A stretch of DNA of 64,000 bases, from assembly GCA_035700105.1 (NCBI GenBank), contig DASSOZ010000029.1:13605-77604 (forward strand), read 5' to 3'. This document shows positions 3,424 to 54,272 of the stretch, piece after piece. The number at the start of each line of letters is the position of its first letter. Within the stretch, counting starts at the first letter, position 1. The position numbers and the translations under genes were made by a program. This DNA comes from Acidimicrobiales bacterium. Its GTDB lineage: Bacteria; Actinomycetota; Acidimicrobiia; Acidimicrobiales; DASSOZ01. The notes under the pieces were generated by a model, which had not been told where the DNA came from, ran no database searches, and worked only from the letters and a program-made list of their open reading frames with translations.

Positions 3424-3597
3424 ATGAGCGATCAGCAGAACGTCGACGACCGCGACCAGAAGGACCCGTTCCCCGCCGACCAGCAGTTCGGCGCCAAGGC
3501 GGCCGCCGACGCCGAGAAGGCCGACCGTGGCGAGACGCCCGAGCGCAGCGAGGGCGAGGGCGAGGGCGAGGGCCCGAGGGCCGGCAACAAGGCCTGA
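3424..3597 (+). CDS. hypothetical small acidic low-complexity protein (57 aa)
   Basis: ATG 3424 is in frame within ORF 3253..3597. GC3-rich codons. Sequence MSDQQNVDDRDQKD...EGEGEGEG. No family recognised. Followed immediately by a 51-nt palindromic repeat. Confidence 0.4.
   Translation: MSDQQNVDDRDQKDPFPADQQFGAKAAADAEKADRGETPERSEGEGEGEGPRAGNKA
3550..3573 (+). repeat. (GAGGGC)x4 hexanucleotide microsatellite, coding for EGEGEGEG
   Basis: Four exact tandem GAGGGC units read directly in the sequence, inside the small ORF. Confidence 0.9.
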
Positions 3598-3606
3598 CCC
3601 AAAGAC

Positions 3607-3657
3607 CGAACTGGGCGTAGATCCGTACCGCAGAGGTACAGATCTACGCCGAGTTCG
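3607..3657. repeat. 51-nt palindromic repeat, family 1 copy A (probable bidirectional terminator)
   Basis: CGAACTGGGCGTAGATCCGTACC-GCAGA-GGTACAGATCTACGCCGAGTTCG: 23-nt arms with 2 mismatches and a 5-nt loop. Near-identical to 18843..18893. The right arm encodes the last codons and stop of the convergent hyuA. Confidence 0.8.
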
Positions 3658-5725
3658 TTGCGGTTCTCAGGTCGTACGTCCCGGCGGCGTCGAGCGTGCA
3701 CGTCCAGCCGGGGGCGACGACGACGACCGTGAACGGCTCCTCGACGAGTGCGGGGCCGTCGACCGACGCGCCGGGCGCGAGGGCGGCGCCGTCGTAGACC
3801 GGCGTGTCGACCCAGCCGTCGCCGAACCACACCGGACGCGCGCCGGTGCGGGCCTGCGACGCGTCCGTGACGGTGCCGACAACCGCGAGCGCGTCGGGCT
3901 TCGGGGTGCGCCCCGACGCGGCGAGTCGCACGCCCCTCAGCAGCGGCTGCTGGTTGCGGAACGCGAACCCGCGGTCGGCCTCGTGCAGGTCGTGGAACCG
4001 GCCGGCGAGGTCGAACAGACCCGGCTCGTCGAGGCCGGCGCCGCCGTCCGGCACCGGGACGCTCATGTCCCAGTTCTGGCCCGGATAGCACATGAGCGCG
4101 TACGCGCTGCGGGTCACGTCGTCCGGCGACAGGTTGGCCGGCGCGAGCTCGTGGTCGGCCTCGTCGGCGAGCTCGGCGAACAGCTTCTTCACGCGGGCGA
4201 CGTCCACCCGCGACAGGGGGGTGACGTAGGCCCGCGTCAGGTCGATCACGTAGTCGGCGACGAGCAGGCCCAGTGCCGAGAACGCCGGCGCCGCCTTCGG
4301 CACCAGCACCCTCGAGATGCCGAGCTCGGGCGCCTGCGCCCACGCATGCACGGCGCCGTTGCCGCCGTAGGCGATCATCGCCAGATCTCGCGGGTCGGCG
4401 CCGTACTGGGCGACGACCCTGCGGACTGCGTTCGCCATGTTGGCGTTGACGATGCGCTCGATCCCCCACGCGGCGTCGACGGCGTCGAGACCGAGCGGTT
4501 CGCCGACGTCACGGGCGATCGCGGCACGGGCGGCGTCGACGTCCAGGCGCATGCGGCCGCCGGCGAACGTGTCGCCGGCCGGCAGATACCCGAGCACGGC
4601 GTCGGCGTCGGTCACCGTCGCGCGGCGACCACCCCGCCCGTAGCAGACGGGACCGGGTTGGGCGCCGGCGGACTCGGGCCCGACGAGCAGTGCGCCCTGC
4701 CGTACGGACGCGATCGACCCGCCGCCGGCCCCGACGGACTCGACGTCGACCATCGGGATCCCGATGTAGTAGCGGTACCGCCAGTTGTCGTCGGTCTTCA
4801 GCACCGGCTGCCCGTCGCGCACCAGGCAGACGTCGTACGACGTGCCGCCCATGTCGACGGCCACGAAGTCGGGCGCCCCGCTGCGGGCCGCGGCGACGGT
4901 CGAACCCATCACGCCGCCGGTCGGACCCGATGCCAGCAGCGACACCGCCCGCTTGCTGACGTACTCGGGCGGCATCACGCCACCGGTCGACTGCATGATC
5001 AGCATCTGCCCGCCGAACCCGGCGTCGCGCAGCTTGCCGGTGAGCCGCTGCGTGTACGACGCGATCCGGGGCGCGACGTACGCGTTGACGAGCGTCGTCG
5101 ACGTCCGCTCGAACTCCGGCGCCTTCGGCATCACCTCGTGTGACAGCGAGATGTGCGCGACGTCGGGGTACTCCTCGACGATCAGCTCGCGCGCCCGCAG
5201 CTCGTGCGCGGGGTTCGTGAACGAGTGCAGGAAGACGACGGCGATGGAGGTGCAGCCGAGCTTCCGCAGTCGCTGCACCCCGGCGCGCACCGCCGCCTCG
5301 TCGAGCGGCAGGACGACGTTGCCGTCGACGTCGAGGCGCTCGGGGATCGGGATGCGGGCACGCCGCCGGGCGATCGGCGGGGGAGCGGGATACGACGGGT
5401 CCCAGATCTCCTCCTTGTGCACCCGCCGCATCTCGATCTCGTCGCGGTGGCCTTCGGTGACGAGCAGCCCGGTGGGTGCACCGTCCATCTCGATCATCGT
5501 GTTGTCCGCGGTCGTCGTCCCGTGCACGAGCGCGTCGAGCTGCGCGCAGAAGTCGGACAACGAACACCCGACGTGCGTCGCCAGCAGCTCGAGCCCGTTC
5601 ATCACCCCGGCGGACTGGTCGTCGGGCGTAGTGGGCGTCTTGTCGAGGATCACCTCGCCCGACGGCGTGACGCAGATCAGGTCGGTGAACGTCCCGCCGA
5701 CATCGATGCCGACGCGAAATCCCAT
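3644..5725 (-). CDS. hyuA: hydantoinase/oxoprolinase A subunit (N-methylhydantoinase A-like)
   Basis: True start MGFRVGIDVGGTFTDL lies inside the 998-aa ORF-track entry, giving 693 aa. ATGA start/stop overlap with the upstream B subunit at 5725. Hydantoinase_A-type ATPase motifs are present (DMGGTSYDV). Confidence 0.9.
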   Translation of the reverse strand: MGFRVGIDVGGTFTDLICVTPSGEVILDKTPTTPDDQSAGVMNGLELLATHVGCSLSDFCAQLDALVHGTTTADNTMIEMDGAPTGLLVTEGHRDEIEMRRVHKEEIWDPSYPAPPPIARRRARIPIPERLDVDGNVVLPLDEAAVRAGVQRLRKLGCTSIAVVFLHSFTNPAHELRARELIVEEYPDVAHISLSHEVMPKAPEFERTSTTLVNAYVAPRIASYTQRLTGKLRDAGFGGQMLIMQSTGGVMPPEYVSKRAVSLLASGPTGGVMGSTVAAARSGAPDFVAVDMGGTSYDVCLVRDGQPVLKTDDNWRYRYYIGIPMVDVESVGAGGGSIASVRQGALLVGPESAGAQPGPVCYGRGGRRATVTDADAVLGYLPAGDTFAGGRMRLDVDAARAAIARDVGEPLGLDAVDAAWGIERIVNANMANAVRRVVAQYGADPRDLAMIAYGGNGAVHAWAQAPELGISRVLVPKAAPAFSALGLLVADYVIDLTRAYVTPLSRVDVARVKKLFAELADEADHELAPANLSPDDVTRSAYALMCYPGQNWDMSVPVPDGGAGLDEPGLFDLAGRFHDLHEADRGFAFRNQQPLLRGVRLAASGRTPKPDALAVVGTVTDASQARTGARPVWFGDGWVDTPVYDGAALAPGASVDGPALVEEPFTVVVVAPGWTCTLDAAGTYDLRTATNSA

Positions 5726-18267: not shown

Positions 18268-18329
18268 GTCGTGGTCGTAGCACCATCGACCGATGGTCGT
18301 TGCGACGTGTGCGGGCGGACGATCACCAC

Positions 18330-18806
18330 ATGCGCAAGCCGATCATCTCGTGGACCATCGGAGCCGTCGCCGTCGCCATGCTCGGCGCCGGCCTCCTCAC
18401 GGCCGCCCGGGCGGTCGACACCAGCCCGGACCCGCAGGTGGTGCTGACGAACAGCCGTCATGGCGGCACCGACGACGGTGCGCCGTCGAGCTCGTCCACG
18501 TCGACGTCGACCTCGTCGGTCCCCACGTCCGTGCCGGGCTCGGTGCCGTCCTCGACCGTGACCTCGATCGACGACCACGGCCGCAACCGCGGGCCCGGTG
18601 GCGGTGGGGACGACGACCCGGCGACCCACGACGTCGGCGACGACCACGGCGGCGACGACGACACCACCGTGTCCACGACGGCGTCGACGACGGCGACCAC
18701 CACCATCGACGACCACGGCGGCCACCGTGCCGACGACGACCCGGCGACCCACGACGTCGGCGACGACCACGGCGGCACCAGCGGCGGCCACGGCGCCGAC
18801 GACTGA
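18330..18806 (+). CDS. secreted Asp/His/Thr-rich repeat protein (hypothetical; possible metal-binding)
   Basis: MRKPIISWTIGAVAVAMLGAGLLTAARA is a signal/anchor-like N-terminus. An S/T-rich linker follows, then the duplicated module IDDHG...DDDPATHDVGDDHGG. An alternative upstream start exists at 18300. Confidence 0.6.
   Translation: MRKPIISWTIGAVAVAMLGAGLLTAARAVDTSPDPQVVLTNSRHGGTDDGAPSSSSTSTSTSSVPTSVPGSVPSSTVTSIDDHGRNRGPGGGGDDDPATHDVGDDHGGDDDTTVSTTASTTATTTIDDHGGHRADDDPATHDVGDDHGGTSGGHGADD
18609..18653 (+). repeat. 45-bp exact direct repeat, copy 1 (intragenic)
   Basis: GACGACGACCCGGCGACCCACGACGTCGGCGACGACCACGGCGGC is identical to 18732..18776. The 123-bp offset equals 41 codons. Confidence 0.9.
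18732..18776 (+). repeat. 45-bp exact direct repeat, copy 2 (intragenic)
   Basis: Identical to 18609..18653. Encodes DDDPATHDVGDDHGG. Confidence 0.9.
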
Positions 18807-18842
18807 CGCCCCCGCCGGCCGCACGCGACCGGCCCCCGTCCC

Positions 18843-18893
18843 CGAACTCGGCGTAGATCTGTACCGCAGAGGTACGGATCTACGCCGAGTTCG
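18843..18893. repeat. 51-nt palindromic repeat, family 1 copy B (probable bidirectional terminator)
   Basis: CGAACTCGGCGTAGATCTGTACC-GCAGA-GGTACGGATCTACGCCGAGTTCG. It ends 1 nt before the stop codon of the convergent response regulator. Confidence 0.8.
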
Positions 18894-19505
18894 TCAGTGG
18901 GACAGGTTGTCGCGGGCCCAGAGGGCGGCCTGGGTCCGGTCGGTCACGCCGAGCTGCTGGAAGATGTTCGTGAGGTGCGCCTTGACCGTGCGCTCGGTGA
19001 TCGAGAGGCGGCGGGCGATCTGCTTGTTCGCCAGACCCTCGGCCACCAGCGCCAGCACCTCCCGCTCGCGGTCGCTCAGGCGTCGCGCCGGCCCGCCGAC
19101 CCGCCGGCGCTCGAGCAGCACCCGTGCGGCCTTCGGGTCGAGCGGCACGTCGCCCGCCGCCGCGGCCCGGACGGCCGCCAGCACCTCGTCGGGCGTCGCG
19201 TCCTTGAGGATGTAGCCGCACGCGCCGGCGTCGAGCGCGTCGACGATGCGGCGTTCGTCGGCGAACGACGTCAGCACGACGACCCGGGCACCTTCGCCGA
19301 TGCGGCGCGTCGCTTCCACCCCGTCGACGCCGGGCATGGACAGGTCCATGAGGACGACGTCGGGTGCCGTCGACGTGACCAGCTCGACGGCCTCGTCGCC
19401 GTCACCGGCGGTGCCGACGACGTCGACGTCGTCGGCGCTCCCGAGGAGCTGCGCCAGTCCCTGCCGGACGACGGCGTGGTCGTCCACGACGAGAACCCGG
19501 ATCAC
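18894..19505 (-). CDS. NarL/LuxR-family two-component response regulator
   Basis: Receiver motifs VLVVDDHAVVRQGL and DVVLMDLSMPGVDG. C-terminal LuxR HTH LSDREREVLALVAEGLANKQIARRLSITERTVKAH. Confidence 0.9.
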   Translation of the reverse strand: MIRVLVVDDHAVVRQGLAQLLGSADDVDVVGTAGDGDEAVELVTSTAPDVVLMDLSMPGVDGVEATRRIGEGARVVVLTSFADERRIVDALDAGACGYILKDATPDEVLAAVRAAAAGDVPLDPKAARVLLERRRVGGPARRLSDREREVLALVAEGLANKQIARRLSITERTVKAHLTNIFQQLGVTDRTQAALWARDNLSH

Positions 19506-20833
19506 GACAGCGGCACCTCCATCCGCACGAGCGTCCCTCGACCGGGCGCGGCGTCGACCGTCAGCGTCGCGCCCGCGTCACGGGCGAGGCCGGCGAGTCC
19601 CCGCAGGCCGAGGTGCCCGGACGACGCCGCCGACGCGGCGTCCTCGGGGGAGAAGCCGGCCCCGTCGTCGGTCACGGACACGCATGCCCGCTCGGCGTCG
19701 CTCTCGGCGACGACCGCCACGGACGTCGCGCCGGCGTGGGCGGCGACGTTGCGGAGCGCCTCGCGGGCGGTGCGGTAGAGCAGCGCACGCGCCGACGCCG
19801 GCAGCTCGTCGGACGCCAGACGCTCGGTGTCGAGTGACACCGACACGCCGGTCGCGGCGACGCCGTCGGCCAGGTCGGCGAGCGCGGCCGCCACGCCGCC
19901 GGGGCCGTCGAGGTCGGCCGGGTAGATGTCGACGAGCATCGAGCGCAGTTCGGTGATCGTCGACCGGATCGATCCGGCCGCGGAGTCGAGCAGCGTCGAC
20001 GCCGGTGTTCCCGCCACGGACGCGTCCCGCGCCGCGCCCGCCAGGCTGAACGCGACGCCGGCCAGCGCCTGCACCGGTCCGTCGTGGAGATCGGACGCGA
20101 CGCGGCGGCGCTCGATGTCGGACGCGTCGAGCGCCCGCCGCAGCAGCGCTTCCTGGACGCGCTGGCGGTGCTGGAGCCGCCGGGCCAGCGACCACGCCAG
20201 CGGGATCTGGAGCACCTCGAGCAGGACGAGCGCGCCGAGCGAGATCGGGGCGAAGCTGCGCCAGATCCTCGATCCCGAGGCCGCGACCGTGTCGTAGCGG
20301 TAGTACGCCTCGAACAGCAGGCGGTCGCCGCCGGGCGTCACGATCGGCAGGTACACCTCGAGCAGCTTCCCGAACGAACGCTCGAACCGGTTCTCGGGCT
20401 TGGTGAGGTCGCTGACCTCGGCTTCGATGAGGCCACCCCGCAGCGCGGCGAGCTCGTCGTCGCCCAGCGCGTAGCGCGCACCGACGAGGCGACGTTCGTC
20501 GGAGTAGACGATCTCGCCGGTGGACGTCCAGATCTTCACCCGCACGAGCGAGTCGTCGAGGACGTCGCGCTCGACGACGTCGCCGACGCTTCGCACGGCG
20601 TCCGGGTCGCGCGCGACGAGCCCGTCGGTGATGACGGGCTCGACACGACCCTGGGCTTTCACGAGCGTCGTCGTGCGTGCATCGGTGATCGCCTCGCGCT
20701 CGCCGACGCGCCGGCTGGCGACCGACGTGGCGGCGCCGACGAGGGCGACGGCGGCGAGCCCGATGAGCGTGAACTGCACGACGGGCCGGGCGACGACCCA
20801 TCGCAACGACGACGGTGTGCTCGCCCCGGTCAT
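19502..20833 (-). CDS. sensor histidine kinase (HisKA_3 / NarX-DesK type) with extracytoplasmic sensor domain
   Basis: N-terminal TM segment, then a ~170-aa loop and a second TM segment. H-box RRRVASDLHDGPVQ. ATPase region GFSPEDAA...GHLGLRGL. 4-nt overlap with the response regulator gene. Confidence 0.85.
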   Translation of the reverse strand: MTGASTPSSLRWVVARPVVQFTLIGLAAVALVGAATSVASRRVGEREAITDARTTTLVKAQGRVEPVITDGLVARDPDAVRSVGDVVERDVLDDSLVRVKIWTSTGEIVYSDERRLVGARYALGDDELAALRGGLIEAEVSDLTKPENRFERSFGKLLEVYLPIVTPGGDRLLFEAYYRYDTVAASGSRIWRSFAPISLGALVLLEVLQIPLAWSLARRLQHRQRVQEALLRRALDASDIERRRVASDLHDGPVQALAGVAFSLAGAARDASVAGTPASTLLDSAAGSIRSTITELRSMLVDIYPADLDGPGGVAAALADLADGVAATGVSVSLDTERLASDELPASARALLYRTAREALRNVAAHAGATSVAVVAESDAERACVSVTDDGAGFSPEDAASAASSGHLGLRGLAGLARDAGATLTVDAAPGRGTLVRMEVPLS

Positions 20834-20852
20834 CGGGGGAGCAGGTTAGGGA

Positions 20853-21209
20853 TCAGCGGATGACCGTCTTGCCGGGCTCGTAGCGGAAGTCGAACTTCTC
20901 GCCGGTGTCCCGGTTCTCGAACCGGATCTCGACACGGTTCTTGTCGCTGGCGGAGGTGCCGCCGGCGGACTTCACCTGGTACGTCCAGCCGGGTTGCACG
21001 TTCGTGACGGCGACGAGGCGGATGCCGACGGACGTGTCGAGCACGACGCAGGCGACACCGTCCAGCGGGTAGTTCCACGGGTTGGTCGACATGTCCCAGC
21101 TGCACGGCAGCTCCGCGGACGCGGGTGCGGCGGTGGCGAGCGGCACGCCGGCGACGGCGGCCGCGATCGTGACGGAGGCGAGGGTGCGACGGATGCGGTG
21201 TCGGTTCAT
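20853..21209 (-). CDS. small secreted protein (118 aa), hypothetical
   Basis: ATG 21209 gives MNRHRIRRTLASVTIAAAVAGVPLATAAPASA, a signal peptide. The mature part has 2 Cys. It lies immediately upstream of, and co-oriented with, the kinase gene. Confidence 0.6.
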   Translation of the reverse strand: MNRHRIRRTLASVTIAAAVAGVPLATAAPASAELPCSWDMSTNPWNYPLDGVACVVLDTSVGIRLVAVTNVQPGWTYQVKSAGGTSASDKNRVEIRFENRDTGEKFDFRYEPGKTVIR

Positions 21210-21259
21210 GCCGGCGACTGTGCGGTCCACCCGGTCGGGCCGGCCAGTGTCCGATGGTG

Positions 21260-23281
21260 CTACGACCTCATCGGCCGGAGGTCGAGCCGGCGGAGCAGCT
21301 GGGCGTTCAGCGCGACGACGATCGTCGACAGGCTCATGAGCACGGCGCCGACCGCGGGCGGCAGCGTGAAGCCCGCCCACGCGAGCGCGCCGGCGGCGAG
21401 CGGGATGGCGACGACGTTGTAGCCGGCGGCCCAGCCGAGGTTCTGCAGCATCTTGCGGTAGCTCGCCTGGCTGAGGCGGATCACCGACACGACCGCGCGG
21501 GGGTCGGAGCTGGCGAGGATGACGCCGGCCGACTCGATGGCGACGTCGGTGCCAGCGCCGATGGCGAGGCCGACGTCGGCCCGCGCCAGCGCGGGCGCGT
21601 CGTTGACGCCGTCGCCGACCATCGCCACCTTCAGGCCACGTCGCTGCAGCTCGGCGACCTTGGCGTCCTTGTCCTCGGGCAGGACCTCGGCCATCACCTC
21701 GTCGACGCCGAGATCGGCACCGACCGCGTCGGCGACCTGCCGTGCGTCACCGGTGATCATCACGACGCGCCGGCCCATCGCCCGCAGGTCGTGGACGGCC
21801 TGACGCGCCTCGGGACGGACCTCGTCCTCGAGCTCGAACGCGGCGACGACATCGTCGCCACGGACGAGGTAGAGGACGGCCGCACCTCGCTTTCGCCACA
21901 CGTCGGCGTCGGCGGTGAGGGCGGCCGGTTCGTCGAGCCCGCGTTCGCGCAGCAGCGCGGGCCCGCCGACGGCGTGGCGCGTGCCGTCGATCGTCGCCTC
22001 GACACCGCGGCCGGTGATCGACCGGAAGTCGGACGCCGAGGGAGCCGCGGTCGCGGACGTCACCGCGCTGGCGCGCACGATGGCGCGCGCCAGCGGGTGC
22101 TCGGAGTCGGCCTCGACGGCGGCGGCGAGGTGGAGCGCGTCGTCAGTCGTCAGCGCACCGGTCGTGGCCACACCGGTGACGGCGTGCTCACCCTTCGTCA
22201 GGGTGCCGGTCTTGTCGAACAGCACGGTGTCGACAGTGCGCATGCGCTCGAGCGCGAGGCGGTCCTTCACCAGGATGCCGGCGCGGGCGCCGATCGCCGA
22301 CGACAGCGACACCACGAGCGGGATGGCGAGGCCGAGCGCGTGCGGGCAGCTGATGACGAGGACGCCGACGGTGAGCAGCACCGCCCGGTCGGCGTCGCCC
22401 GCCGCCAGCCACGCGACGAGCGTGATGACCGCGGCGCCGGCGGCGACGTAGAAGAGCAGCGCGGCGGCGCGGTCGGCAAGCGCCTGGGCGCGGCTGCGGC
22501 TCTCCTGGGCCTGGGTCACGAGACGCTGGATGCCGGCGAGCGCGGTGTCCTCGCCGACGGCGTCGACACGGACGCGGATCGCCGAGTCGGTCGACACCGT
22601 GCCGGCGACGACGCGATCGCCCGTGGTCTTGGCGACCGGGCGCGACTCGCCGGTGATCATCGACTCGTCGAGCTCGGCGCGCCCGTCGACGATCTCGCCG
22701 TCGGCCGGGACCCGGCCGCCGCTACGGACGAGGACCGTGTCACCGGCGCGCAGGTCGTTGAGCGCGACGGTCTCGGTCGTCCCGTCGGAGGCCAGGCGCT
22801 CGGCCTCGTCAGGGAGCAGCGCGGCGAGCGCGCCGAGCGCGTCCTGCGCCTGGCCGAGCGCCTTCATCTCCTGCCAGTGCCCGAGCAGCATGATCGTCAC
22901 CAGTGCGGCGAGCTCCCACCAGAACTCCTGGTCGAACCAGTCGAGCGAGTTGGCGAGCGACGCGCCGTACGCCACGGTCAGGGCCATCGCGATCAGCAGC
23001 ATCATGCCGGGCCGTCGCGTGCGGGCCTCGTCGACGCCACCGGTGAGGAACGGCCAGCCCGCCCACAGGAACACGACGGTGCCGAGCACCGGCCCGACCC
23101 ACTCGATGCCGGCGAAGTCGAGCTCGTAGCCGAGCCAGTCCATGACCATCTCGCTCGTGACGACGATCGGGACGGTGAGCAGCAGGCTCCACCAGAAGCG
23201 CGTCCGGAACACCGCGGCGTGGTCGGCGTGCCCGTGATGGCCGTGGTGCCCGTGATCGTGATCGTGCCCGTCGTGTTCCAT
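21260..23281 (-). CDS. heavy-metal (copper) P1B-type ATPase, CopB-like
   Basis: TGES, the CPH transmembrane metal motif (ISCPHALG), DKTGTLT and GDGVNDAP. His-rich N-terminus MEHDGHDHDHGHHGHHGHADH replaces an HMA domain. Confidence 0.9.
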   Translation of the reverse strand: MEHDGHDHDHGHHGHHGHADHAAVFRTRFWWSLLLTVPIVVTSEMVMDWLGYELDFAGIEWVGPVLGTVVFLWAGWPFLTGGVDEARTRRPGMMLLIAMALTVAYGASLANSLDWFDQEFWWELAALVTIMLLGHWQEMKALGQAQDALGALAALLPDEAERLASDGTTETVALNDLRAGDTVLVRSGGRVPADGEIVDGRAELDESMITGESRPVAKTTGDRVVAGTVSTDSAIRVRVDAVGEDTALAGIQRLVTQAQESRSRAQALADRAAALLFYVAAGAAVITLVAWLAAGDADRAVLLTVGVLVISCPHALGLAIPLVVSLSSAIGARAGILVKDRLALERMRTVDTVLFDKTGTLTKGEHAVTGVATTGALTTDDALHLAAAVEADSEHPLARAIVRASAVTSATAAPSASDFRSITGRGVEATIDGTRHAVGGPALLRERGLDEPAALTADADVWRKRGAAVLYLVRGDDVVAAFELEDEVRPEARQAVHDLRAMGRRVVMITGDARQVADAVGADLGVDEVMAEVLPEDKDAKVAELQRRGLKVAMVGDGVNDAPALARADVGLAIGAGTDVAIESAGVILASSDPRAVVSVIRLSQASYRKMLQNLGWAAGYNVVAIPLAAGALAWAGFTLPPAVGAVLMSLSTIVVALNAQLLRRLDLRPMRS

Positions 23282-24158: not shown

Positions 24159-24209
24159 CTTTTGGTACCCGGAGCGGGGCCAGTTGGGCGCCGCTCCGGG
24201 TACCAAAAG
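24159..24209. terminator. perfect 19-bp stem / 13-nt loop hairpin between convergent genes
   Basis: CTTTTGGTACCCGGAGCGG-GGCCAGTTGGGCG-CCGCTCCGGGTACCAAAAG. The T/A runs at the stem base give a U-tract on either strand. Confidence 0.75.
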
Positions 24210-24229: not shown

Positions 24230-25429
24230 TTACCGCTTCGGCAGGCGGATGGCGCGGTCGGCGATGATGTTCTTCTGCACCTCGGTCGTGCCGGCGCCGA
24301 TCGACGTGTAGCGCTGCCAGGTGTACTGGTGCGTCCAGTGCCCGCCGTCGACCGCGTCGGGACCGCCCTTGGCGAGCACGCCGGCGGGACCGAGCAGGTC
24401 GACGCCGAGCTCGGCGAGCGTCTGGCTGAGGTGTGACCACTGCAGCTTGGCGAACGGCACCTCGGGCCAGTTCTTCTCACCCTTGAGGATCTTCGACAGC
24501 GCCCGGTAGTTGAGCAACTGCGTCAGCCGGATCTGCGTCCACGCCTCGGCGATGCGGGCGCGCAGCAGCGGGTCGGCGAGCGCGGACGGGTTGTGCTTCC
24601 GCGCGGTGTCGATCATCTGTTGCAGTTCGATCTTGAGCGTGATCGACAGGCCCGACGTCCCGACGCGCTCGTGGCCGAGCGTGCCCATCGCGACCTGCCA
24701 CCCGGCACCCTCGTCGCCGAGGCGGTACCTCACCGGGACGCGTGCGTCGGTGAAGAACACCTCGTTGAACATCGCGTCGCCGGTGATCTCACGGATGGGG
24801 CGGCACTCGATGCCATCGGCGTGCATGTCGACGATGAGCGCGGTGATGCCGTCGTGCTTGCGGCCGTCGGCCAGTGCGGACGGATCCGTCCGCACGAGGA
24901 ACAGGCCCCAGTCGGCGATGTGCGCGGTGGAGATCCAGATCTTCTGCCCGTTGACGACGTAGTCGTCGCCGTCGCGGACCGCGACCGTCCGCAGGTTGGC
25001 GAGGTCGCTCCCGGCCTCGGGTTCGGTGAAGCCCTGACACCAGTGCTCGTCGGCGTTGAGGATCTTCGGCAGCCACCGCTGCTGCTGCTCGGCGGTGCCC
25101 CAGCGCACGATCATGGGGCCGATCTGCCAGATGCCGTTGGCGTTGTAGATGCCCGGCGTCTTCGCCCGCGCCATCTCCTCTGAGTAGATGACGTTCTGCA
25201 TGACGGTGGCCTCGCGGCCGCCCCACTCCTTCGGCCAGTTGATCGCCGCCCAGTTGCCGGTGTTGAGCTCGCGCTGCCACGCCTTGCGCCGCTCCATCGT
25301 GCGCAGCAGGCCCGTGGACGTGCCGTCGCCGATCTCGCCCTGCTCGTTGAACGCCGGCAGGTGCTCGTCGAGCCACGAGCGCAGTTCCGCCCGGAACGCC
25401 TCGTCTTCCGGCGTGAAGGAGAAGTCCAT
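24230..25429 (-). CDS. acyl-CoA dehydrogenase
   Basis: 399 aa with WCQGFTEPEAGSDLANL, WISTAHIADWG and C-terminal IGAGTTEVQKNIIADRAIRLP. Confidence 0.9.
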   Translation of the reverse strand: MDFSFTPEDEAFRAELRSWLDEHLPAFNEQGEIGDGTSTGLLRTMERRKAWQRELNTGNWAAINWPKEWGGREATVMQNVIYSEEMARAKTPGIYNANGIWQIGPMIVRWGTAEQQQRWLPKILNADEHWCQGFTEPEAGSDLANLRTVAVRDGDDYVVNGQKIWISTAHIADWGLFLVRTDPSALADGRKHDGITALIVDMHADGIECRPIREITGDAMFNEVFFTDARVPVRYRLGDEGAGWQVAMGTLGHERVGTSGLSITLKIELQQMIDTARKHNPSALADPLLRARIAEAWTQIRLTQLLNYRALSKILKGEKNWPEVPFAKLQWSHLSQTLAELGVDLLGPAGVLAKGGPDAVDGGHWTHQYTWQRYTSIGAGTTEVQKNIIADRAIRLPKR

Positions 25430-30675: not shown

Positions 30676-31818
30676 TCACGCGCCCCTCGGGAGCCCGAGG
30701 ACCCGCTCGGCGATGATGTTGCGCTGGATCTCCGACGTGCCGCCGGCGATCGTCGAGGCGAAGCTGACGAAGAAGCTGTGCGACCAGCGGCCGGACTCGG
30801 CGCCGTGGGGACCGAGCAGGTCCATGCCCAGCTCGAAGAGCTCCTTGCCGAGCTCGGACGTCGCCAGCTTCAGGTACGACTCGCTCGCACCGCCGCGGTA
30901 GCCGAGCGCCCGCAGCGACCGCACCCGCTCGTCCATCTCGCCGAGCTGACGCCGTACCACCGCGTCACCGGAGAGGCCACGCGAACGCGCGAGCGCGCAC
31001 AGGTCGGCGAACGCGTGCTCGCACGTCGCGACGCCCTGCACCCAGAGGCCGCCGCGCTCGTGGGCGAGCGATCCCATCGTGATCCGCCACCCGGCGTTCA
31101 GCTCACCGACGAGGTTCGTCACCGGCACCGACACGTCGTCGAAGAACACCTCGGCGAACTCGGCGGCGCCGGTGATGTGGCGCAGCGGGCGGACGTCGAT
31201 GCCCGGCGCGTCCATGTCGACGATCAGCACGGAGATGCCGCGGTGCTTCGGCACCTCCGCCGAGATCGGGGTCGTGCGGACGTAGCAGAAGCACGTGTCG
31301 GCGACGGTGGCGTACGACGTCCACACCTTCTGGCCGTTGACGACGAACCGGTCGCCGTCGAGCACGGCACGCGTCGACAGCGAGGCGAGGTCGGACCCCG
31401 CGCCCGGCTCGCTCATCCCGACGCACCACACGGTGTCGCCTCGGATCGCCGCCGGGGCGAGGGCCTTCTGCGCGTCGGTGCCGTACTCGAGCAGCGACGG
31501 GCCCACGATGGCGTACCCGGGGAAGTGCACCGACCGCGGTATGCCGCGCGCCGCGAGCTCCTCCATGTAGACGAGCGTCTGCACCGGCGTGGCGTTGCGC
31601 CCGCCGAGCTCGGGCGGATAGCCCGGCACCATCCACCCGTGGTCGAACAGCGTCGCCTGCCACTCGCGCGCCCACGCGGGCAGCAGGTCGCCGCCGTCGT
31701 CGGCCTCGGCCGTCACCCAGTCGCGACCGGTCTTCGCCTCCGGTGGCGCGTGGGCCTCGAGGAACGCGACGAGCTCGGCTCGGAACGCGTCTTCCTCGGG
31801 GCCCCACGCCAACCGCAT
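30676..31818 (-). CDS. acyl-CoA dehydrogenase
   Basis: 380 aa with WCVGMSEPGAGSDLASL, WTSYATVADT and IAGGTSEIQRNIIAERVLGLP. Confidence 0.9.
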   Translation of the reverse strand: MRLAWGPEEDAFRAELVAFLEAHAPPEAKTGRDWVTAEADDGGDLLPAWAREWQATLFDHGWMVPGYPPELGGRNATPVQTLVYMEELAARGIPRSVHFPGYAIVGPSLLEYGTDAQKALAPAAIRGDTVWCVGMSEPGAGSDLASLSTRAVLDGDRFVVNGQKVWTSYATVADTCFCYVRTTPISAEVPKHRGISVLIVDMDAPGIDVRPLRHITGAAEFAEVFFDDVSVPVTNLVGELNAGWRITMGSLAHERGGLWVQGVATCEHAFADLCALARSRGLSGDAVVRRQLGEMDERVRSLRALGYRGGASESYLKLATSELGKELFELGMDLLGPHGAESGRWSHSFFVSFASTIAGGTSEIQRNIIAERVLGLPRGA

Positions 31819-41265: not shown

Positions 41266-41276
41266 CACCCCCGTTC

Positions 41277-41324
41277 GAGGTTGATGCCGTGGACCCCCGT
41301 GAGCGGTGGTCCACGGCATCAACC
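41277..41324. repeat. 48-nt palindromic hairpin repeat, family 2 copy B
   Basis: AGGTTGATGCCGTGGACC-CCCGTGAGCGGT-GGTCCACGGCATCAACCT: perfect 18-bp stem and 12-nt loop, which ends in AGCGGT as in copy A. Confidence 0.8.
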
Positions 41325-41348
41325 TGGATGGGATGAACCGGTCCAAAC

Positions 41349-52706: not shown

Positions 52707-54272
52707 CTACGAACCGTCGTCGGTGGGGGTGTACGGGTAGTACGGCATGTCGCCGCACTGCTTCGCCCGCGTCACGAACGTCCCGGCCGAGTCCTGCCAC
52801 TGGTGCAGGTCGAAGCAGTCGCTGTGCGGCTTCGAGTGGTCGAGCGGCTGCCACGAGACCGGGTCGTCCATCAGTCCGGCGATCGTGTAGTCCGCGTCGT
52901 CGCCGATCGAGTTGAGCCAGTCGACGAGGCCCTTGCGCGTCGGCGACGCGCCCATCTTCGCCACACCCTCGGTGAACAGCTTCCCGGCCGCCCACCCCTC
53001 GAGCGCCCACTGGTGGAGCCGGAAGCCCGGGTCGAACTTCTTCATCGCCGCCCGGAACTCGGCGACCGGCGCGCTCGTGGTCTCGGCGTACGACTTCGAG
53101 TCGGTCTGGGCCCACACGTCGTTGCGGCACGGCGCGCTGAAGTCCTGCCCGACCTTCTGGCTCATGCCCTGGATCGTGGAGACGTTGGCCTTCACGCGGA
53201 AGCTGTAGCGGTCCATCGCCTGGCACAGCTTCTGGAAGCCGGCGATGTCGATCGCGTTCCAGATGCCCTGCACGCCCCTGTTGCGCATCTGGATGACGTC
53301 GGTGTCGAACGTCGGCGCCGCCGGGTTCATGCCGGCGTCGCTGCCGCCGCCGTAGTAGACGGGCTCGATGCCCTGCTGGCGCAGGCCGTCGGCGATGAAC
53401 ATGCCCGCGGTGCGCGAGATCGGGATGAAGTAGAAGAAGACGGCGGCCTTGTCGATCTTCACCTGCTGCTTGAAGTACCGGTACGCGCCGCCCTGCGCGT
53501 AGAGCTTGCCCTTGTCGCCGACGCTCTTGCCGTCGCGCGGCGTGTCGACGCCGAGGATCGAGAACAGGTGGGGGTACTTGTAGTAGGCGTTGCCGATCGG
53601 CTGGCCGCCGATGTCGGGCACGCCCTTCGAGTCGATGTACTTCCCGGCGGCGAACGTGTCCGTCGACCCGGCGACGAGGGCGAACACCTTCTGGTTCTCG
53701 ACGAGGTTCTGCGCGCAGGCGAGGTCGCGGTCGGACGACTCGCGGTCGTCGCACGTCGAGAACTTCACCTTGCGGCCGTTGACGCCGCCTCGCTCGTTGA
53801 GCGCCTGGAAGAACGCCTGGGCGCCATGGAGCATCCCGCTGAACGCCTCTGGGCCGATGGGGCCGCCGACCGCGGTGATGTTGCCGACCTTGATCTCGCT
53901 CGCCGTCACGCCGACGTCCGACGCCGTGTTCGTCGCGCTCGCACCGGTCCGCGTCGGTTCGCCGGCGCCGGCACCACCACCGTCCCCACCCGCACCGCCG
54001 TTCTCCGACGCAGTCGGAGTCTGCGCCCCGTTCTGGGCCCCGGGATCCGATCCTGTTGGAGCACCCGGGGACGCGGTGCTCGTGTCGAGGGCGTCGTCGC
54101 CGGCGGCCTGATCGCCGCCCGAGGCAGCTGCGGTGCGACCACCCGGGCGAACCTCGCCCCCCGTGCCGGCGGCGGTCTGGAAGGCCTCGTCGGGCAGCCG
54201 CGTCCCGCACGACGCCGCGAGCAAGCCCACCGCCGCCATGACGACCCAGACCGGTCGGACGCGTCGACGCAC
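52707..54272 (-). CDS. LIV-type (PBP type 1) ABC substrate-binding lipoprotein, paralog 1
   Basis: GTG start with a G6 SD. Lipobox LLAASCG and a long low-complexity linker. The body is collinear with paralog 2, and the C-termini match (PYYPYTPTDDGS versus WFPYTPQDDGS). Confidence 0.85.
   Translation of the reverse strand: MRRRVRPVWVVMAAVGLLAASCGTRLPDEAFQTAAGTGGEVRPGGRTAAASGGDQAAGDDALDTSTASPGAPTGSDPGAQNGAQTPTASENGGAGGDGGGAGAGEPTRTGASATNTASDVGVTASEIKVGNITAVGGPIGPEAFSGMLHGAQAFFQALNERGGVNGRKVKFSTCDDRESSDRDLACAQNLVENQKVFALVAGSTDTFAAGKYIDSKGVPDIGGQPIGNAYYKYPHLFSILGVDTPRDGKSVGDKGKLYAQGGAYRYFKQQVKIDKAAVFFYFIPISRTAGMFIADGLRQQGIEPVYYGGGSDAGMNPAAPTFDTDVIQMRNRGVQGIWNAIDIAGFQKLCQAMDRYSFRVKANVSTIQGMSQKVGQDFSAPCRNDVWAQTDSKSYAETTSAPVAEFRAAMKKFDPGFRLHQWALEGWAAGKLFTEGVAKMGASPTRKGLVDWLNSIGDDADYTIAGLMDDPVSWQPLDHSKPHSDCFDLHQWQDSAGTFVTRAKQCGDMPYYPYTPTDDGS

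Follow-up and report, generated by a model that had tools for sequence, protein, structure and literature searches.

Two convergent gene junctions in a 64,000-nt stretch of DNA (hereafter the window), part of the metagenome-assembled genome of an uncultured Acidimicrobiales bacterium from soil, carry nearly the same 51-nt palindrome. This raises the questions of what kind of element the palindrome is, how it came to stand at both junctions, and what it might do at the ends of the genes that meet there.

Copy A occupies positions 3607-3657 and copy B positions 18843-18893, neither being assigned a strand. In copy A, two 23-nt arms with two imperfect pairs enclose a 5-nt loop that reads GCAGA on the plus strand, and copy B is a palindrome of the same length with the same loop. 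The 51-mer quoted in the first-pass annotation is exact at 3607-3657, and its report of a second copy with equal length and loop and few substitutions is borne out: the copies differ at three positions (7, 18 and 34) and are identical at 48 of 51. A repeat search of the window also pairs them, at 92%. They are direct repeats, 15 kb apart. The outermost 11 nt of each arm form the stem base. Its halves read CGAACTCGGCG (18843-18853) and CGCCGAGTTCG (18883-18893) in copy B, the latter adjoining the response-regulator stop at 18894-18896, and CGAACTGGGCG (3607-3617) and CGCCGAGTTCG (3647-3657) in copy A, where, in an alignment of six variants with pair counts, a single G in the left half replaces the family's C.

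With 10-nt flanks included, both copies are predicted to form RNA hairpins on either strand, with folding energies of -40.6 to -52 kcal/mol and z-scores of -6.4 to -9.6. The same two elements were found again in the independent metagenome assemblies L014, L002 and L039, which excludes an assembly artefact. Rfam, searched at the gathering threshold and by E-value, gave no matching family, with generic long-hairpin (miRNA precursor) models matching below threshold only, in keeping with the earlier remark that the element has no family name.

One explanation would be that independent terminators converged by chance, or that the copies are the remnant of a larger segmental duplication. Other gaps in the window do hold long hairpins of unrelated sequence (24159-24209 and 41275-41328), which counts in favor of such an explanation. 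However, the core or single-arm pattern, with up to three mismatches, occurs at two places only in the 64 kb, which are copies A and B, and 100 dinucleotide-preserving shuffles gave an expectation of 0.00 matches against the 48 of 51 identical positions seen. The same 22 stem-base nucleotides also recur in four further variants from other lineages, described below. With regard to duplication, BLASTN of 1.5 kb on either side of the two copies found no significant similarity outside the element, and an inverted-orientation extension of the A/B match by 28 nt scores below the element by itself. We rejected segmental duplication and regard this whole explanation as close to negligible. The view taken in the first-pass annotation, that the copies are homologous members of one repeat family without similar flanks, thus stands.

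The other long hairpins and repeats of the window are recorded here in their own right. The hairpin at 24159-24209 (CTTTTGGTACCCGGAGCGGGGCC-agttg-...) is perfect, unrelated in sequence and of the same geometry (51 nt, 23-bp stem, 5-nt loop). It lies between convergent DUF3237 and acyl-CoA dehydrogenase genes where the sister lineage has only a 15-nt gap, and it too has therefore been gained or lost in one of the lineages. Downstream of a 1054-aa subtilase gene, the 54-nt hairpin at 41275-41328 (25-bp stem, 4-nt loop, about -44 kcal/mol) is likewise unrelated to the family. Between 51154 and 53798, blocks that are 77-88% identical recur at a 1.6-kb offset, the second copy falling in a Peripla_BP_6 solute-binding gene (52707-54272) and suggesting two tandem paralogues. 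Inverted-repeat matches of 72-82% between 2574-2963 and both 24715-25099 and 31087-31428 lie in acyl-CoA dehydrogenase paralogues and reflect a large paralogous set of fatty-acid or CoA metabolism genes in the window.

At copy A, the convergent minus-strand gene is hyuA (3644-5725), which encodes a 693-aa hydantoinase/oxoprolinase A with Pfam domains Hydant_A_N, Hydantoinase_A and Hydant_A_C. Its reading frame enters the element by 14 nt: read on the minus strand, the right arm at 3644-3657 supplies the N-S-A codons and the TAG stop, giving a HyuA C-terminus of ...YDLRTATNSA*. On the plus strand, a 57-aa acidic ORF with an EG repeat (3424-3597; annotated as HET7652020.1, hypothetical protein) ends 9 nt before the element, with an acyl-CoA dehydrogenase gene just upstream. 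The (EG)n tract of this ORF is polymorphic in length among strains (55-57 aa), and in a protein collection the ORF falls in a 90% cluster with unrelated proteins of 370-460 aa, apparently a clustering artefact.

At copy B, a NarL/LuxR-type response-regulator gene (18894-19505, minus strand) directly adjoins the element with its TGA stop and is followed by its histidine kinase and then a P-type ATPase. On the plus strand, a 168-aa ORF for an Asp/His-rich protein with DDPATHDVGDDHGG repeats (18300-18806) ends 36 nt before the element; the ATG at 18330 is its likely start, and a hydrophobic N-terminal stretch would point to secretion. Both copies thus follow plus-strand small-protein genes and meet the stop of a convergent minus-strand gene, with the final NSA-stop codons of hyuA inside the right arm of copy A, as had been described. 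The gene sets around them are unrelated in function, with hydantoinase and acyl-CoA dehydrogenase at copy A versus a two-component system and a His-rich protein at copy B.

The Asp/His-rich protein has no Pfam match, and the number of its DDPATHD(V/A)GDDHGG-type repeats differs by lineage. It measures 168 aa in the window (18330-18806), and 187, 163 and 175 aa in the relatives L022 (2099-2662), L025 (2475-2966) and L040 (5040-5567), respectively. The block from 18300 to 23281, which comprises the genes for this protein, the response regulator, the histidine kinase and the P-type ATPase, does not occur here in the sister lineage, which instead has a BON-domain gene between the SDR and DUF3237 genes. 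The block looks like an accessory metal-handling module.

The same two junctions were retrieved from relatives by exact-protein look-ups, in lineages whose coding DNA is about 90% identical to that of the window. At the hyuA junction, a 51-nt palindrome directly follows the TGA of the gene in the sister lineage (L015-L021); this palindrome shares the outer 11 nt of each arm and has an unrelated interior. In L035, a third lineage, the version at this junction is 50 nt long and has a different interior again. At the response-regulator junction, a 52-nt version (L022 and L023) and a 51-nt version (L024) contribute two further interiors. Across these six variants and two loci, the 11-bp stem base CGAACTCGGCG/CGCCGAGTTCG is unchanged except for the one substitution in copy A, which creates a mismatch. 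The element is 50-52 nt in total, with 28-30 nt between the 11-mers, and it begins 0-9 nt past a stop codon, or overlaps the stop, between tightly convergent genes. The elements are orthologous and stable across these lineages.

The variable interior keeps its pairing. When the six distinct variants are aligned, both partners have changed in 8 of the 12 pairs that lie inward of the invariant base, and 89.8% of alignment cells are paired, whereas sliding the 3′ partners by 1-3 columns lowers this share to 22-41%; the covariation score was reached by none of 500 shuffles. Every variant is predicted to fold on both strands as a single continuous stem (-34 to -45 kcal/mol). Between lineages, identity is 61-70% in the intergenic flanks and 42-63% in the interiors, while the 22 base nucleotides are the same bar the copy A substitution. 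The interior thus diverges at about the rate of flanking non-coding DNA, with length and pairing kept. Since the base is unchanged while flanks and interiors diverge, the stem base is constrained in sequence; the rest of the element is constrained only in length and pairing.

Such a pattern bears on whether the element works as double-stranded or cruciform DNA, with the inverted 11-mers bound by a site-specific recombinase, a nucleoid-associated protein or a regulator and the ability of the interior to form a hairpin being incidental. Conservation of the 11-bp ends beyond what pairing needs, and their constant spacing of 28-30 nt, would fit a binding site of this kind. Against it, the interior maintains complementarity through two-sided changes, which a spacer between half-sites does not need. 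Both sites lie between convergent 3′ ends and not in promoter regions, the neighboring gene sets are functionally unrelated, and no recombinase gene is nearby. Among specific sites of this type, an operator for the adjacent LuxR-type regulator was rejected: the position is one between 3′ ends, and the other copy stands at a locus unrelated to this one. An integron attC site was rejected as well. The attC consensus has R″/R′ core sites RYYYAAC...GTTRRRY, in tandem cassette arrays served by an IntI integrase, whereas the ends here, (G/A)ACGAAC ... GTTCG(G/T), break the consensus on both sides, and the elements stand singly between conserved core genes with no cassette array and no integrase among the window ORFs scanned. 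We judge a DNA-site role very improbable.

How did the two copies in the window come to be so alike? The interiors of window copies A and B are 93% identical, and the interior at the hyuA junction of L035 is 83% identical to that at the response-regulator junction of L024, in the same orientation relative to the adjoining gene. Interiors at the same locus are only 42-63% identical when compared between lineages, so that interiors group partly by lineage and not by locus. Interiors that are alike across loci and unlike across lineages indicate that the near-identity of A and B arose from recent non-reciprocal copying between the loci. Such copying probably occurred in more than one lineage, if L035 and L024, which are short contigs from different samples, are taken as one lineage. 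With A and B repeated in direct orientation at a distance of 15 kb, gene conversion would be the simplest mechanism; counting against it, 51 nt is a short repeat length for recombination of the RecA type. A master copy that re-inserts would be a less simple route to the near-identity. The window interior is closest to that of L022 at the response-regulator locus (about 60%), which weakly suggests copying from B to A in the window lineage.

The overlap of hyuA with copy A has a simple history. Most HyuA orthologs end 1-4 residues past a conserved ...YDI motif, and in the sister lineage the protein ends ...YDLRTT (RTT-TGA), with the TGA adjoining the element. In the window and L035 lineages, this TGA has been lost through a common 2-nt deletion, and translation continues to the TAG of the element (...TATNSA in one and ...TTTNSA in the other). 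The element does, as first proposed, provide hyuA with its final codons and its stop; by comparison with the sister lineage, this is a derived state, a recent accident and not a designed overlap. A SECIS element, which a hairpin right after a UGA might suggest, was rejected, as the apex varies, the longer reading frame shows no conservation, and that frame would enter the convergent gene.

The small plus-strand genes do not follow the element. The 57-aa ORF is found in the window and L035 lineages, where the first 29 residues are unchanged and the differences are synonymous only, and the sister lineage keeps the element without it. L025, in turn, keeps the His-rich protein gene without the hairpin. 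Since element and small ORFs occur apart in these two cases, the association with small acidic proteins put forward in the first-pass annotation is coincidental, and the small ORF as part of a cassette was discarded.

More distant relatives lack the element at both junctions. In the outgroup L036 (HyuA 82% identical in amino acid sequence), the two stop codons are 4 nt apart with no element between them. In L025 (response-regulator gene 84% identical in nucleotide sequence), only CGAACTCG is present, without a palindrome or strong hairpin. In L040 (response regulator 75% identical in amino acid sequence), an unrelated hairpin with a 14-bp stem begins at the same stop codon; a hairpin recurs at this junction with a different sequence. 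Taken together, the family appears to be young and to occur only in a single narrow clade of uncultured Acidimicrobiales from soil.

A covariance model, R1, built from the six variants scores copy A at 69.7/61.1 bits and copy B at 73.4/69.7 bits. Matches range from 61 to 73 bits in the window and from 53 to 70 bits in relatives, and the next best, at 26 bits, is an unrelated hairpin. Searching the 64-kb window (filters off) and the related contigs with R1 revealed no copy beyond the two known loci. The 11-mer has one other exact occurrence in the window, a singleton without a paired copy. An interior pattern, GTAGATCNGTACC...GGTACNGATCTAC, which represents the variable part of the element, was searched in 185,579 species-representative genomes; the window-type interior is absent from them, and the sole match is an unrelated palindrome in a Peribacteria genome. 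A looser interior pattern, again of the variable part, gave 11 palindromes in metagenome contigs, all unrelated. In viral contigs, CGAACTCGGCG-N(20-40)-CGCCGAGTTCG gave two matches, coding, non-palindromic and due to chance, and BLASTN against plasmids and phages returned nothing relevant. The element had been called dispersed, a term that gains no support from a family seen at two loci only in the window and related contigs, with its window-type interior in none of the 185,579 genomes.

Occupancy of two unrelated loci, with outgroups empty at both, requires at least one insertion or copy event, and this is the starting point for reading the family as a REPIN-like non-autonomous mobile element. 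A single-copy HUH/Y1 (RAYT-like) transposase encoded elsewhere in the genome would recognize the invariant ends in folded single-stranded DNA and copy the hairpin to new extragenic sites, with effects on transcripts being secondary. No target-site duplication surrounds the element, and IS200/IS605-type single-strand transposition leaves none. Interiors are uniform within a lineage and different between lineages, L025 keeps 8 nt of one invariant end, much as REPIN excision products leave about 6 bp, and the architecture fits the published description of REPINs (PMC3116915). Several observations stand against mobility. The family is confined to two loci in the window and the related contigs searched, the extra 11-mer is a lone singleton with no further paired copy found, and the invariant end by itself does not form a small REP palindrome. 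A Pfam scan of window ORFs found no transposase, integrase, IS or Y1/HUH gene among those scanned. The elements are stably orthologous at about 90% coding identity, and plain gene conversion explains the same-orientation likeness of A and B with no need for a transposase. We consider a REPIN-like mobile element unlikely, if a serious contender.

Two related identities were rejected. The label MITE-like, also applied in the first-pass annotation, has to be dropped: no direct repeat flanks any of the six variants, and no IS or transposase gene is among the window ORFs scanned. An uptake-signal-like motif, a model prompted by the inverted DUS pairs that occur in Neisseria, does not apply as singletons of the 11-mer are rare.

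Overall, we lean, if only slightly, towards a clade-restricted hairpin family that has been converted between loci and acts at the 3′ ends of convergent transcripts. The transcript of either strand would fold into a hairpin of about -35 to -45 kcal/mol at the 3′ end of the message. This hairpin may serve as a terminator that lacks a U-tract ('I-shaped' or factor-assisted), as a barrier to 3′-to-5′ exonucleases, or as both; it would define and stabilize the 3′ termini of the two converging transcripts and reduce transcription that continues into the opposing gene. The position 0-9 nt from a stop codon, the predicted stability on both strands, the pairing kept across variants and the recurring hairpin in L040 favor these roles. 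By its structure and placement, the bidirectional terminator put forward in the first-pass annotation is plausible.

A canonical (L-shaped) intrinsic terminator was rejected, as no U-rich tract follows the hairpin. On both strands of copies A and B, there is no U-tract after the stem (tails GTTGCGGTTC/GTCTTTGGGT at copy A and TCAGTGGGAC/GGGACGGGGG at copy B), and a terminator consensus scan was silent at both elements. Mycobacterial RNA polymerase needs a U-tract in vitro, which counts against the transcript-end reading. Speaking for that reading, no U-tract is present at 353 of the 535 highly structured 3′ ends of transcripts in Streptomyces clavuligerus (PMC8269248). Against it, in M. tuberculosis few 3′ ends mapped by Term-seq overlap predictions of TRIT (bioRxiv 10.1101/2022.06.01.494293), the palindrome that is compared with the element below.

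A plain hairpin terminator needs no invariant stem base, so something else constrains the base. In the transcript-end reading, a trans-acting factor might recognize the base, a proposal already made for TRIT. A bolder version, which we regard as a long shot, holds that the stem base is the recognition site of a dedicated trans-acting factor, which would make the family one of two firsts: a TRIT-like factor-dependent terminator class found outside Mycobacterium, or a REPIN/RAYT-type hairpin replicator described from Acidimicrobiia. If that were true, the freely evolving apex and the homogenized loci would be the signature of that system.

Why two short palindromes merit attention follows from the setting. 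How transcripts end in high-GC actinobacteria is still unclear, canonical U-tract terminators are scarce there, and TRIT, the one sequence-conserved candidate, has no established mechanism. The six variants amount to a small natural experiment in which the base is fixed and the remainder needs only to pair. The family is also a clean case of concerted evolution between two very short repeats, and hyuA is a gene that borrows its stop codon from a repeat. Should there be only two copies and no effect on RNA, the element would be a minor curiosity.

In comparison with known systems, the element resembles a miniature REPIN, or a TRIT-type palindrome at gene 3′ ends, and is a demonstrated member of neither. 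An invariant stem base with a varying tip is the one unusual trait of an otherwise ordinary kind of bacterial repeat. REPINs are REP doublets that form hairpins and are mobilized by RAYT transposases (Bertels & Rainey 2011, PMC3116915). Like them, the element is an extragenic, symmetrical hairpin with invariant left and right ends and a less conserved spacer of fixed length in which compensatory changes keep the pairing (11 + 11 conserved positions in 50-52 nt). The lineage-specific sequence type, the lack of a target-site duplication and a possible excision footprint that keeps a few bases of one end, in L025, are further points of likeness. Unlike REPINs, whose invariant 16-mers are spaced 71 bp apart (PMC3116915), the element is only 51 nt long, about half the size. 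Its ends do not each contain a REP: CGAACTCGGCG has no internal self-complementarity, and a single continuous stem is predicted. The window and related contigs hold two loci and not a dense population of tens to hundreds of copies, and a Pfam scan of window ORFs revealed no RAYT gene, which in REPIN systems mostly has the repeats on either side. A literature search for REPIN/RAYT systems in the actinobacterial class of the host found no report.

TRIT, the 'Tuberculosis Rho-independent terminator' of Mycobacterium, is presented in Gardner et al. 2011 (PMC3152330) as a sequence-conserved palindrome, mostly bidirectional and centered near -8 from the stop codon. The likeness extends to a high-GC actinobacterial host, a hairpin conserved in both sequence and structure, a tight tie to gene ends, the lack of a canonical U-tract, and sequence conservation that suggests a trans-acting factor. 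TRIT typically overlaps the stop (about -8), as copy A does, and across the family a conserved palindromic hairpin lies 0-9 nt past a stop or contains it and is predicted to fold on both strands. Unlike the present family, which conserves only the stem base, TRIT has 147 copies per genome and is reported only from Mycobacterium (PMC3152330). Compared with the description of TRIT, and with Acidimicrobiales as host, the element would be at most an analog.

With the HS-U-lack 3′ ends of Streptomyces clavuligerus (PMC8269248), the element has in common a very stable GC-rich stem-loop at the gene end and no U-tract, and it is placed, like I-shaped terminators, between convergent genes where it could be used on both strands. 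Unlike I-shaped terminators, which are normally unique in sequence, it has an 11-bp base that is common to two loci and invariant across lineages.
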